Counted from the stretch's first letter, positions 21,205-27,840 are shown. The stretch: 64,000 nt of DNA from an uncultured Planctomycetota bacterium (GCA_963752285.1 CAVVXN010000001.1:640001-704000), one strand, 5' to 3'. Numbers and translations: made by a program. Notes: generated from the sequence alone by a model not told the origin.

Positions 21205-21921
21205 ATGGGTGCCATCCTCGCCATCCTCACCTTCGCAGCGTTCATCTTTCTCGACTATCTCCTCAGCCGGCGCGCCGCCCGAAGGCAGGCGCTGTCCCCG
21301 GCCGAGATCCCCGTCGCCGTGGACGTGGAGGCGCCCCGCCCGGAGTCCGAGCCGCGGCTCGAGCCGGTGTGGGTCGCGGGCTACAACCTGCCCGACCAGC
21401 TCCACTACCACCGCGGCCACACGTGGGCCCGGGTCGTCGGCCCGGACACGGTCACGGTCGGCATCGACGACTTCTCGCGCCGCCTCCTCGGCAAGGCCGA
21501 GGACGTGACGCTCCCCGCGGTGGGCTCCTACATCCGCCAGGGCGGCAAGGGCGCGCGCCTCGCGCTCGACCACCGCGCGGCGGACGTCGTCTCGCCGATG
21601 GACGGGGAGGTCGTGGCGGTCAACGAGGGCCTCCAGAGCGAGCCGCAGCTCGCCACGGACGACCCGTACGGCCGCGGCTGGCTCTTCCGCGTCCGCTCGA
21701 CCAACCTCGCCGCGGGGCTTCGAAACCTCCTCGACGGGTCGATCGCGCGGAAGTGGATCGAAGACTCCCGCGAGCAGCTCGAGCTTCGCCTGATGGCGCT
21801 CTCGGGCTCCGTGCTCCAGGACGGCGGCGAGCCCGCGCCGGACTTCGCGGAGCACCTGGAGGCCTCCGAGTGGAAGGGCCTCGTCGAGCACTTCCTTCTG
21901 ACCGAGGGGTACGAGCGCTAG
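21205..21921 (+). CDS. Membrane-anchored glycine cleavage H-like protein without lipoyl-Lys
   Basis: N-terminal TM; YHRGHTWAR, VGIDDF, SPMDGEVVAVN, DPYGRGWL; AAGGAGG RBS. Confidence 0.88.
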   Translation: MGAILAILTFAAFIFLDYLLSRRAARRQALSPAEIPVAVDVEAPRPESEPRLEPVWVAGYNLPDQLHYHRGHTWARVVGPDTVTVGIDDFSRRLLGKAEDVTLPAVGSYIRQGGKGARLALDHRAADVVSPMDGEVVAVNEGLQSEPQLATDDPYGRGWLFRVRSTNLAAGLRNLLDGSIARKWIEDSREQLELRLMALSGSVLQDGGEPAPDFAEHLEASEWKGLVEHFLLTEGYER

Positions 21922-21966
21922 GCCTCGCGCCTCGCGTTCCTGCCGCCGAGAGATCGGGAGCCAGCC

Positions 21967-22830
21967 ATGACCGACAAGAAGCCGATGGCCATCCTCTACG
22001 ACATGACCTGCTGCACGGGCTGCCGCCAGTGCATGAAGGCATGCAACAAGAAGCAGGGGTTCGAGGGAGACGTCGAGCAGATCCACGATCTGTGCGAGAC
22101 CTCGTTCTCCGTGATCAAGTCCGTGGCGCCGAGGGACAAGGACGACGACGAGCACTACTACCGCAGCATGTGCCGGCACTGCGTCGAGCCCACCTGCGCG
22201 AGCGTGTGCCCGGTCGGCGCGCTCCACAAGACCCCCGAGGGTCCGGTGGTGTACGAGGTGGACCGCTGCATGGGCTGCCGCTACTGCATGACGGCCTGCC
22301 CGTTCAGCGTGCCGCGCTACACCTGGCACGACCCCGTCCCCTCCGTCCGCAAGTGCAACATGTGCTACGACCGCATCCTCGAGGGCAAGGAGACGGCCTG
22401 CGCCGAAGCCTGCCCGAACGGGGCCACGATCTTCGGCACGCGCGAGGAGATGCTCGCGGAGGCGCACAAGCGGATCCAGGAGTCGCCCGACGACTACTAC
22501 GACCACGTCTACGGCGAGCACGAGGTCGGCGGCACGTCGGTCCTCTTCCTGGCGCCCTTCCCGCTCGAGGAGCTCGGCTTCAAGGAGTCGCTCGGCACCG
22601 AGCCGATGCCCGTCCACACGTGGCGGGTCATCGAGAAGATCCCCGGCATCGCGGTCTCGGCCGCGGCCACCATGCTCGCGTTCTGGTGGATCACGCAGCG
22701 CCGCGAAGAGGTCTCCCGCTTCGAGGCGAAGGCGAAGGCCGAACGCAAGGCGCATCACGGGAACGGCCGTCTCTCGGCCGAGAACGACGGGTCGAACGGG
22801 AACGAGGAGGACAGCCGTGAGCACGCCTGA
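21967..22830 (+). CDS. HybA/FdnH-like 4x[4Fe-4S] protein with C-terminal TM anchor
   Basis: CTGCRQCMKAC, CRHCVEPTCASVCP, CMGCRYCMTACP, KCNMC..ACAEACP, YGEHEVGGT. Confidence 0.92.
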   Translation: MTDKKPMAILYDMTCCTGCRQCMKACNKKQGFEGDVEQIHDLCETSFSVIKSVAPRDKDDDEHYYRSMCRHCVEPTCASVCPVGALHKTPEGPVVYEVDRCMGCRYCMTACPFSVPRYTWHDPVPSVRKCNMCYDRILEGKETACAEACPNGATIFGTREEMLAEAHKRIQESPDDYYDHVYGEHEVGGTSVLFLAPFPLEELGFKESLGTEPMPVHTWRVIEKIPGIAVSAAATMLAFWWITQRREEVSRFEAKAKAERKAHHGNGRLSAENDGSNGNEEDSREHA

Positions 22831-25905: not shown

Positions 25906-27281
25906 CACCCGCCGCCCCGCAGAAAGGCGCGCTCTCGATCCTGGTCGTGGACGACGAGACGATCGTCCGCGAGTCGCTCGGCGCCTGGCTCCGGGAGGAC
26001 GGGCACAAGGTCGAGACGGCCGAGACCGCGCGCCAGGCGCTCCGCATGGTCGCGGACGGCCACTACGACCTGGCGCTGATCGACATCAAGATGCCCAACA
26101 TGGACGGCCTCGAGCTCCAGGCGCGGCTCGCCGAGGCCGCGCCCGACCTGACCGTCGTCATCATGACGGCGTACGCCTCGGTGGACACGGCGGTCCGCGC
26201 GCTCAAGTCGGGCGCGTACGACTACATCGTGAAGCCCTTCGACCCCGACGAGCTGAGCCACCTGATCCGTCGCGCCGAGGACCACCGCTCGCTCCGCACC
26301 GAGAACGTGCGCCTGAAGCAGTCGCTCGAGGTCGCGTCCGCGGGCACGCGCATGATCGGCCCTTCCAGCGCCATGCAGCGGGTCATGGAGGTGGTGCAGA
26401 GCGTCGCCCCGACCGACGCCACGGTGCTGATCCAGGGCGAGTCGGGCACGGGCAAGGAGCTCGTCGCGCACGCGATCCACGCGGGCTCGCCCCGTCGTTA
26501 CAACCCGATGGTGATGGTGCACCTCGGCGCGCTCGCCGAGGGCGTGCTCGAGAGCGAGCTCTTCGGCCACGAGAAGGGCGCGTTCACGGGCGCGGCGTAC
26601 CCGCACAAGGGGAAGTTCGAGCAGGCGGACGGCGGCACGATCTTCCTCGACGAGATCGGCGAGGTGAGCCCGCACGTCCAGGTCGAGCTGCTCCGCGTGC
26701 TCGAGGAGAAGCGCGTGACGCGGGTGGGAGGGAAGCGCGCGATCGACGCGGACTTCCGCGTCGTCGCGGCGACCAACCGCGACCTCCTCGCGATGGTGCG
26801 CGACGGGACGTTCCGCCAGGACCTCTACTACCGGCTGAACGTGGTGAACATCACGATCCCGCCGCTCCGCGACCGGCCCGAGGACATCGCTCCCCTCGCC
26901 GAGCACTTCCTCGAGCGGATCGGCCGGTCGATGAGCCGCAAGGGCCTCTCGTTCGAGCCCGCCACGCTCGCGGCGCTGAAGGCGCACTCGTGGCCGGGCA
27001 ACGGCCGGGAGCTCCAGAACGCGGTCGAGCGGGCCGTCGTGATGAGCCACCAGGCGGTGATCCCGCCGGCCGCGCTGCCGCAGTACGTGAAGGCGCACGC
27101 CGAGGCGCCCGTGCCGGAGGCGCGGACCCTGGCCGACGTCGAGAGGTTCCACATCGAGTCGGTCCTCCGGGAGACCGAGTGGAACATCTCCCGCGCGGCG
27201 CAGATCCTCGAGGTGGACCGCGGGACCCTCTACAACAAGATCAAGAGGTACGGCATCCCGAGGCCGGGCGATGGGGCGTGA
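25902..27281 (+). CDS. Sigma54-dependent response regulator (NtrC/ZraR family)
   Basis: REC domain (VVDD, DIKMP, KPF), GESGTGKE, GAFTGA, WPGNGREL, Fis-type HTH; ATGA overlap. Confidence 0.97.
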   Translation: MTPAAPQKGALSILVVDDETIVRESLGAWLREDGHKVETAETARQALRMVADGHYDLALIDIKMPNMDGLELQARLAEAAPDLTVVIMTAYASVDTAVRALKSGAYDYIVKPFDPDELSHLIRRAEDHRSLRTENVRLKQSLEVASAGTRMIGPSSAMQRVMEVVQSVAPTDATVLIQGESGTGKELVAHAIHAGSPRRYNPMVMVHLGALAEGVLESELFGHEKGAFTGAAYPHKGKFEQADGGTIFLDEIGEVSPHVQVELLRVLEEKRVTRVGGKRAIDADFRVVAATNRDLLAMVRDGTFRQDLYYRLNVVNITIPPLRDRPEDIAPLAEHFLERIGRSMSRKGLSFEPATLAALKAHSWPGNGRELQNAVERAVVMSHQAVIPPAALPQYVKAHAEAPVPEARTLADVERFHIESVLRETEWNISRAAQILEVDRGTLYNKIKRYGIPRPGDGA

Positions 27282-27840
27282 GGACGCGCGCACGGTCCCG
27301 AGCGGCTTCCTCGTCCTCCAGGTCGGCGGACCGCCGCGCGTGCTGGTCGAAGGGGTCACGGCCGCGCTGAGCCGCCGCGTGGACGTCGCCTGCCGCCTCG
27401 CCGAGGCGCCCGAGGGCTTCCCGCTGCCGCGTCTCGAACACCGCGAGCAGCTCGACGCCGACGCCGTACTCGGCCACCTCGAGCGTCTCCCCCGCGACGA
27501 CGGCACGTGGATCGTCGGCGTCACCCACCACGACCTCGGGAACCCGATCTTCACGTTCTTCTTCGGCCGCGCGCGCCACCACGGGGGCGCCGTGCTCGTC
27601 TCGACCGCGCGCCTCGCGCCGGCCTACTACGGGCTCCCCGACGACGTGCGCGTGACGACGCGCCGCGCGGTGCTGGAGACGCTCCACGAGCTCGGACACG
27701 CGGCGGGCCTCGGACACTGCCAGGACAGCGCCTGCCTCATGCGCTTCTCGCCGACCGTGGAGTCGCTGGACAACCGCGGCGAGCGGTTCTGCCCCGTGTG
27801 CGCGCTCGAGCTCCCCGACGCGTTCCGCCCCTCCCGGTGA
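27271..27840 (+). CDS. Archaemetzincin (M54) zinc metalloprotease
   Basis: HELGHAAGLGHC, CLM Met-turn, FCPVC. Confidence 0.9.
   Translation: MGREDARTVPSGFLVLQVGGPPRVLVEGVTAALSRRVDVACRLAEAPEGFPLPRLEHREQLDADAVLGHLERLPRDDGTWIVGVTHHDLGNPIFTFFFGRARHHGGAVLVSTARLAPAYYGLPDDVRVTTRRAVLETLHELGHAAGLGHCQDSACLMRFSPTVESLDNRGERFCPVCALELPDAFRPSR

Follow-up and report, generated by a model that had tools for sequence, protein, structure and literature searches.

A stretch of 64,000 nucleotides from an uncultured Planctomycetota bacterium (C1:640001-704000 of an 89%-complete genome; hereafter the window) carries six genes at 21205-27840, raising the question of what a quinone-linked membrane pair does in the company of a GcvH-fold protein, a haem-motif sensor kinase, a sigma-54 activator and an archaemetzincin. 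We find these six genes to be one conserved operon, present in several phyla of mostly uncultured bacteria. Each part comes from a known family; the assembly, and the export signal missing from the iron-sulphur (FeS) subunit of the pair, are new. The reading we favour, giving it about an even chance, is that of an inducible, self-regulated conduit from menaquinone to the periplasm under haem-redox control.

Six genes in one conserved operon

All six open reading frames (ORFs) are intact and lie on the + strand:

21205-21921, +: gene 1, 238 residues, Pfam GCV_H; membrane-anchored GcvH-fold protein
21967-22830, +: gene 2, 287 residues, Pfam Fer4_11; HmcB/HybA-type 4x[4Fe-4S] protein
22817-24037, +: gene 3, 406 residues, GTG start, Pfam NrfD; HmcC/HybB-type membrane protein
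24205-25905, +: gene 4, 566 residues, Pfam HAMP, HisKA and HATPase_c; sensor histidine kinase
25902-27281, +: gene 5, 459 residues, Pfam Response_reg, Sigma54_activat and HTH_8; NtrC-type sigma-54 activator
27271-27840, +: gene 6, 189 residues, Pfam Peptidase_M54; archaemetzincin

Genes 2 and 3 overlap by 14 nucleotides, genes 4 and 5 by 4 and genes 5 and 6 by 11. An initial annotation of this DNA had described six co-directional, partly overlapping genes without a hydrogenase, molybdoenzyme, multihaem or GcvP/T/L gene beside them; we agree on both points, the Pfam identities being those listed, no gene of these kinds adjoining the cluster and the flanking genes being unrelated. The gap before the kinase gene contains a perfect 13-bp hairpin (24106-24134, +; gap folding z = -3.3), not called as a terminator, which is a possible attenuator or mRNA-stability element.

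With the GcvH-like protein as anchor we obtained 68 genome loci, 19 of which have the exact six-gene order; the same order is seen in 4/29 loci anchored on the FeS subunit or kin to these, and in 17/80 metagenome loci anchored on the archaemetzincin, which are the best 80 of 583 matches to a search pattern derived from cassette-linked proteins and sampling that clade only. Many of the remaining loci are cut at contig ends, rearranged or ordinary gcvH genes. The exact order recurs across loci and the cluster is therefore not a chance arrangement, answering the question the initial annotation had posed of whether the genes co-occur elsewhere. The records of the 19 genome loci are titled Planctomycetota, Acidobacteriota, Krumholzibacteria, Deltaproteobacteria or unclassified, and the genes are found rearranged in Anaeromyxobacter, Bacteroidota, Zixiibacteriota and other groups. 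Among the 25 archaemetzincin-anchored loci with at least 7.5 kb upstream, all six genes are present in 18, the FeS/NrfD pair in 22, the haem kinase in 23 and the GcvH-like gene in 20. A close FeS homologue is found in 18 of 301 sampled genomes of the phylum, the cassette thus being patchy. The GcvH-like protein and the protease, which the initial annotation had put forward as extra control layers, are each missing from some copies, and a strict pairing of the two was rejected, as either occurs without the other. Our search of the literature for the cassette or its odd parts returned no description, most subscription papers and supplements lying outside its coverage; some cassette proteins could be among the entries of supplementary Table S3 of PMC10924467 or in the datasets that accompany PMC12889525. 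The ESM Atlas gave nothing beyond GCV_H and Cache-type leads.

A predicted sigma-54 promoter with its own enhancer

The region upstream of gene 1 contains the following predicted elements:

20820..20836, no strand: distal enhancer-like palindrome (YGTnG-N7-CnACR), matrix score 20.3, top single site genome-wide
20942-20958 and 20963-20979, no strand: tandem enhancer-like palindromes, matrix scores 18.5 and 10.0
21043..21059, no strand: proximal enhancer-like palindrome, 120 bp upstream of the -24 element
21163..21178, +: predicted sigma-54 -24/-12 promoter, GG at 21164-5 and GC at 21176-7, a weak match (8/12)

The palindrome was defined by 58 seed sites in 24 of 30 training upstream regions, compared with 1.3 in mononucleotide shuffles (maximum 4), and the matrix was trained without the window; applied to it, this window-free matrix finds four sites, one of them the genome's best. 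The spacing from the proximal palindrome to the -24 element, 120 bp here, is 118 bp in the three nearest relatives, the tandem pair (20942..20979) precedes the proximal site by about 100 bp, as it does among relatives, and the -24/-12 element, at -42, occupies the same place in them (-42 to -46). A -24/-12 match of at least 9/12 is found in 24/33 upstream regions, about 4 being expected from shuffles, and a site resembling that of integration host factor (IHF) lies between enhancer and promoter in 18/27 relatives against 5.2 expected. A sigma-70 promoter was looked for and none was found. The same palindrome stands 5' of the rearranged operons of Anaeromyxobacter, Bacteroidota and Zixiibacteriota, usually directly before the gcvH-like gene, and tandem or solitary gcvH-like copies carry palindromes of their own. 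One such copy stands alone in L090 (G011 C102), where, as a second gcvH-like gene some 8 kb away from the full cassette, it has enhancer sites to itself.

Gene 5 has the features of an NtrC-type activator, i.e. the receiver aspartate (Asp61), GAFTGA and a Fis-type helix-turn-helix (HTH), and rpoN in the genome and a -24/-12 promoter with an enhancer accompany them, in line with the sigma-54 control proposed earlier. In a joint enhancer-plus-promoter scan of the genome the operon's own promoter ranks first (45.7; runner-up 30.5), and the operon is therefore likely autoregulated. This conserved arrangement backs the self-regulation that the initial annotation had assumed: the activator likely drives its own operon, which appears to be its only clear enhancer target in this genome.

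The kinase carries two haem motifs

The kinase is composed of a periplasmic sCache_heme-type domain, HAMP, a dimerisation and phosphotransfer domain with His318, and the ATPase. The haem-motif kinase of the initial annotation is confirmed and refined, there being two motifs instead of one, CxxCH (119-123) and CX4CH (162-168). Cys119, Cys122, His123, Cys162, Cys167, His168 and Met67 are invariant and His170 nearly so; the second motif reads CX4CH in 32, CX3CH in 2 and CX2CH in 3 of 37 sensors, and the strict CxxCH is invariant. A sensor profile matches 3B42 at E 1.2e-8 and 3B47 at 7e-6 (GSU0935 and GSU0582), PF21563 is over cut-off in 1/5 domains tested, and Met67 aligns with Met60 of GSU0935 (counted from His144 in the alignment). 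We conclude that the sensor is a predicted di-haem variant of sCache_heme. Met60 is a ligand bound when the haem is reduced and displaced on oxidation or by nitric oxide (NO) or carbon monoxide (CO) (PMC8396549). Di-haem forms in Anaeromyxobacter and Geobacter (Adeh_2011, Adeh_3383, GSU0591, GSU0599) have been noted by sequence (PMC3831638), and the available text of a second preprint on the sCache_heme family (10.64898/2026.05.25.727664) mentions neither NrfD nor di-haem.

The ligand chemistry allows another reading, which we consider quite improbable, according to which the kinase senses NO (or CO) and the operon serves a nitrosative-stress or N-oxide-respiration response. GSU0582 and GSU0935 bind NO with displacement of Met60 (PMC8396549), a signalling-fused member of what is now named the sCache_heme family binds NO tightly and behaves as an NO sensor (PMC12889525), and in Anaeromyxobacter oryzae (L045) haemerythrin-like and iron-centre-repair-like genes, named by eye, follow the gcvH-like gene. 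Two haems with conserved candidate sixth ligands (Met67, His170) are, however, suited to electron transfer, and no NO-detoxifying gene recurs among the neighbour clusters.

The membrane pair and its missing export signal

On the NCBIfam models the FeS and NrfD subunits score higher as HmcB and HmcC (244 of 420 and 331 of 550 bits at cut-off) than as HybA and HybB (200 and 310 bits), all four scores being below cut-off. This refines the HybAB-like pair of the initial annotation. The NrfD subunit (Pfam NrfD, 88 bits; cut-off 25.8) has N-in polytopic topology with ten transmembrane (TM) helices, a canonical charge bias and the conserved DLGRP, LHQSSLG and YPWGLW motifs, and is predicted to hold a menaquinone site. 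The FeS subunit has a C-terminal TM anchor (approximately residues 225-243) followed by Arg245-Arg246, and it has no N-terminal signal for twin-arginine translocation (Tat), an absence the initial annotation had missed: the first Cys motif stands at residue 16, an in-frame stop lies 15 codons upstream of the start, and the match to the HmcB model begins at its position 36. As a working rule, an outward-facing FeS protein needs its own Tat signal or a signal-bearing partner. The missing signal breaks this rule; what is new is either the way the protein is exported or the topology assumed for it.

Among 89 FeS homologues, with 13 duplicate or broken loci excluded and the signal split made by eye, the Tat signal is absent in 77 and present in 12. 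The two sets form separate groups in a tree rooted by choice on L104, which leaves the direction of signal gain or loss undefined. All 89 keep the C-terminal helix. Anaeromyxobacter has the signal-bearing version, its regulator genes being at another chromosomal site. The charge bias of the NrfD subunit is canonical in 76/76 signal-less and 13/13 signal-bearing cases, with helix limits drawn by hand, its conserved docking motifs lie on the outer face, and the FeS subunit is predicted to face outward.

The predominance of signal-less homologues would also suit an FeS subunit that remains cytoplasmic, docked on the GcvH-fold protein in a redox unit facing the cytoplasm. Single-chain FeS-NrfD fusions without a signal exist (L033-L036, L109), and non-lipoylated barrel-sandwich domains are structural parts of RnfC and NqrA, both weak matches. 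Against this very improbable arrangement stand the canonical charge bias of NrfD in both sets and the outer-face docking motifs, and the Arg-rich linker that follows the tail in the fusions would need to be on the outside.

The cluster might also be what is left of an operon for a formate dehydrogenase or hydrogenase, the Tat-bearing catalytic subunit having been lost or being encoded elsewhere, with the FeS subunit hitchhiking on it. Just one of the 77 signal-less homologues showed a Tat-bearing neighbour, namely an FdnG-type subunit directly before the FeS/NrfD pair (L104), and the available text of PMC10924467 (section 12) knows a signal-less pair of this type only in the same arrangement behind a Tat-bearing [FeFe] hydrogenase. 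In dozens of intact copies from different phyla there is no such neighbour, a non-exhaustive search of this 89%-complete genome turned none up, five relatives showed no partner in common, and signal-less HmcB also occurs in complete HmcF-HmcE-HmcB-HmcC::cytochrome clusters at at least 8 loci (families checked for L097), leaving the remnant most improbable.

An Arg-Arg pair after the C-tail is present in 74/77 signal-less but only 4/12 signal-bearing homologues, a contrast that compares two lineages; the hitchhiker L104 has the pair as well, and positive flanks are usual on C-tails. Tat export reading the Arg-Arg behind the C-terminal helix, a back-to-front signal, is only a lead. If true, it would also account for the single-chain fusions. 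In a combined form, which we rate as improbable, Tat would move the N-terminal folded FeS domain by means of the post-helix Arg-Arg, the FeS chain, once outside, would connect menaquinol directly to the di-haem domain of the kinase, and the lipoate-free H-fold would constitute a new class of signalling module. Three other explanations were discarded: read-through from the gcvH-like gene into the in-frame FeS gene, because relatives are not alike in frame and the product would still be without a signal; an inverted NrfD topology, by the charge bias; and a Tat signal on the GcvH-like N-terminus, where the Arg residues come after the hydrophobic stretch and are variable.

A second Planctomycetota family (L097, L098, L105, L106, L108, L113, L114, L116) combines HmcF/DsrK-like and HmcE/TmcC-like proteins with signal-less HmcB, an HmcC fused to a six-haem domain and a PAS sigma-54 regulator; no Tat-bearing subunit was seen in it.

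A GcvH-fold protein without the lipoyl lysine

The GcvH-like protein has an N-terminal TM helix followed by an Arg-rich flank, contains no Cys, and carries a domain predicted to be cytoplasmic with a C-terminal extension of about 45 residues that bears a QDGG motif and is helical in the model. The predicted model (predicted local distance difference test 91.8) overlays on H protein 1dxm with Z 19.8 and a root-mean-square deviation of 1.3 Å over 131 residues. The position of the lipoyl lysine is His123; Lys is there in 0/120 close homologues and within one column in 12/120, bearing out the non-lipoylated H-fold protein of the initial annotation. In long Bacteroidota fusions (n=120) the site is Gly, with Lys within one column in 120/120; a one-column shift of the Lys would block lipoylation.

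GcvH-like domains can follow various parts, namely a TM helix, periplasmic binding protein, receiver, HoxU/NuoG-type FeS domain or Cys-rich domain, the HoxU/NuoG-type form adjoining NuoEF, HdrA, TusA and DsrE genes. This distribution fits a portable docking or signalling module. Among the best 120 matches listed, the longer GcvH-like proteins are only Bacteroidota-type fusions (about 460-640 residues), and no Pfam match among the best 120 listed shows a fusion to kinase, activator, protease or FeS subunit, a weak negative result. Complex prediction for activator, GcvH-like protein and archaemetzincin reached 0.29, the mark being 0.32. The Zixiibacteriota-type loci L051, L054, L055, L057 and L060, in which the domain is fused to the HoxU/NuoG-type FeS protein, have NuoE/F, HdrA, CCG, TusA and DsrE genes as neighbours, with two kinase-activator sets and the same enhancer.

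The archaemetzincin accompanies the activator

The archaemetzincin has an intact HExxHxxGxxHC-x4-C-x-M-x16-CxxC motif and no signal peptide; the motif is complete in 22/22 clade members, with Glu140 invariant. It scores 124.5 bits on NF033823, under the cut-off of 145, and 68 of 250 bits on the CarG model NF033824, the CarG-type Glu-to-Gln swap being absent. Of the 49 loci among the best 80 of 583 matches that extend 1.5 kb or more upstream, 48 have the activator next to the archaemetzincin. The clade protease is encoded elsewhere, once more alongside kinase and activator, in three of five genomes whose gcvH-like locus is without it, which ties it to the activator more than to the membrane module. 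Two archaeal archaemetzincins showed no activity on standard substrates (PMC3427221). That archaemetzincins have no established bacterial role, as had been stated initially, is too strong, given Myxococcus xanthus CarG, a non-catalytic homologue and transcription cofactor coupled behind carD (PMC3427221, PMC8156234).

Electron partners vary among relatives

Partners were surveyed in the 16 exact-order genome loci with at least 2 kb on both sides, using translated starts and CxxCH counts instead of full family scans. A multihaem gene lies within 4 kb in four of them, one locus is placed between a soluble group-3b-type hydrogenase and hyp genes, and in the remaining 11/16 neither multihaem gene nor hydrogenase was seen by these means; orthologous clusters do not, then, usually include a known catalytic subunit, the possibility against which the initial annotation had set its proposal. 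Relatives with a cytochrome have c7 trihaem genes (Anaeromyxobacter), porin-cytochrome clusters, or 3- to 7-haem domains that follow the NrfD subunit in the same chain, with an additional TM helix in between.

The window's genome encodes, elsewhere, rpoN, TatC, cytochrome c maturation, MqnC and an ordinary gcvT-gcvH pair, as well as complex I, genes like those of alternative complex III (ACIII)/oxidase and 17 ORFs with at least two CxxCH. Its two molybdopterin-family matches are an FdhF-like ORF without a signal and a gene situated in the nuo cluster; this search was not exhaustive, as it missed an ActB-like gene seen otherwise. Because similar clusters adjoin the cassette in L039 and L066, a cluster of Rieske, cytochrome b, 10-haem and 5-haem genes at G000 C5:1603701-1608433 in this genome may be its partner in trans; the joint scan gave no enhancer-promoter match there.

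A paralogous cassette in this genome (C1:535661-541455, L084) has activator and di-haem kinase divergent from an arm with a short TM peptide, a signal-less FeS protein (57%) and NrfD (51%). It has a good -24/-12 site and a degenerate palindrome pair and is without GcvH domain and protease; L096 and L101 resemble its layout.

These comparisons bear on a reading in the line of the initial annotation, according to which the pair is a pure sensor wire reporting the quinol/quinone ratio to the kinase's di-haem domain without useful flux, the output passing through the GcvH-fold protein, the protease or undetected targets. The varied inputs in front of GcvH-like domains (binding protein plus TM helix, receiver, FeS, Cys-rich) resemble a signal-output layout, the clusters beside NuoEF/Hdr genes have kinases with PAS or Cache inputs in place of haem motifs, and the four signalling genes occur without the pair in four loci. 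However, the enhancer marks only the operon itself in this genome and therefore leaves such a sensor without a target, so that the pair as sensing input is not borne out; the fusion of cytochrome domains to the NrfD subunit speaks for a genuine flow of electrons, and the paralogous copy dispenses with both GcvH domain and protease. We consider the sensor wire unlikely, although a serious contender.

A model for the operon

In the redox-controlled conduit that we favour, the haem-motif kinase would read the periplasmic redox state and phosphorylate the sigma-54 activator. Oxidation or reduction of the Met67-ligated haem would toggle the kinase, the added CxxCH haem being the electron entry point. 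The phosphorylated activator would bind the palindromes and drive the operon. The NrfD subunit would then turn over menaquinol and the FeS chain hand electrons to haem proteins, making the pair a cytochrome-less Hmc-type conduit between the menaquinone pool and periplasmic haem proteins. The acceptors may be the cytochromes fused or adjacent in some relatives, ones encoded elsewhere in this genome or possibly, as feedback, the kinase's own di-haem domain. The GcvH-fold protein, held at the complex by its TM helix, would serve as a docking or signalling module free of lipoate, and the archaemetzincin may act on the activator, as a protease or as a CarG-like cofactor.

Several observations weigh against this model. 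The window's own FeS subunit has no Tat signal, and its promoter is weak (8/12) with no evident IHF site (5/9). Most exact-order loci have no conserved electron partner; [NiFe] (PF00374) or [FeFe] hydrogenase was not found in this 89%-complete genome, FdnG-type formate dehydrogenase is above cut-off in 0/5 cassette genomes and a full-length [NiFe] large subunit in 1/5, and no Tat-bearing partner in trans is common to five relatives. Signalling-fused sCache_heme domains are NO sensors in a tested case (PMC12889525). GcvH-like protein, kinase, activator and protease are without the FeS/NrfD pair in L026 and L067/L068/L071, and the conduit is therefore not an invariant output. The GcvH-like gene is missing from 5/25 of the long protease-anchored loci, and G159 (92% complete) yielded no clade protease.

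Through the cassette, a defined genetic setting is now at hand for two orphan families, the lipoate-free H-fold proteins and the bacterial archaemetzincins that are catalytically intact, and the predicted promoter, operator and signal make both testable with reporters. The operon suggests that a redox circuit linked to quinones is widespread among Planctomycetota, Acidobacteriota and other lineages of soil and sediment, most of them uncultured.

Surroundings of the operon

The genes flanking the six-gene run are:

19741-20724, -: Gfo/Idh/MocA oxidoreductase
27862-28308, -: Fur-family regulator

On the 3' side, a Fur/PerR-family regulator, a DoxX-like membrane gene and an acetyl-CoA synthetase (27862-30968) represent local synteny, because the same run is present in L017 and L090. 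Short imperfect GACGCCCC-type repeats run between the DoxX-like gene and the acetyl-CoA synthetase (28815-28950). A lower-GC island (10922-18276), ending at tRNA-Sec (18178-18276), contains an AAA ATPase, then an S8-type protease split across two frames (12017-13849, 13357-14697), the remains of an IS3-like transposase and part of an integrase, and resembles a decayed ATPase-subtilase defence pair (gene names by eye).

Comparison with known systems

The Hmc complex of Desulfovibrio vulgaris (HmcABCDEF; PMC10924467) apparently shares with the window a tail-anchored 4x[4Fe-4S] protein, an NrfD-type quinone subunit and a small TM helix. In contrast, the multihaem cytochrome HmcA, HmcE and HmcF are not among the six genes, the window's FeS subunit is without Tat signal, its TM helix carries a GcvH-fold domain, and the operon adds its own kinase, sigma-54 activator and archaemetzincin, in a planctomycete host. 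The TM helix survives alone in paralogue-type loci and may resemble the hydrophobic peptide HmcD; no model matched it. We take the Nhc complex to be a close relative system beside Hmc. E. coli hydrogenase-2 uses the same two families in the same gene order, but HybA has a Tat signal, unlike the window's FeS protein, and the hydrogenase large and small subunits are absent from the operon. Pairs hitchhiking on a Tat-bearing [FeFe] hydrogenase (PMC10924467) or FdnG (L104) keep the C-tail without a signal peptide, as in the window, where the upstream gene encodes a GcvH-fold protein without Tat motif instead of a Tat-bearing carrier.

The sensor is apparently homologous in its fold region to GSU0582/GSU0935 (PDB 3B47/3B42), with a C-terminal haem motif and the predicted Met ligand in register; this motif is mostly CX4CH in the window's clade (32/37) and not strict CXXCH. 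A second haem motif is already recorded for some sCache_heme relatives, and partner genes are not described for these di-haem forms in the text available. By its model, the GcvH-like protein shares the fold of the glycine-cleavage H protein and of Streptococcus GcvH-L (PDB 5A35), differing from the H protein in the absent lipoyl Lys, the membrane anchor and the C-terminal QDGG extension. As in CarD-CarG, an archaemetzincin-fold protein is translationally coupled behind a transcription activator, with the same C-x4-C-x-M-x16-CxxC spacing (PMC8156234); CarG has Gln at the catalytic position where the window's clade keeps Glu (22/22), and its partner is CarD, in place of which the window's protein would, by analogy, presumably bind the sigma-54 activator.

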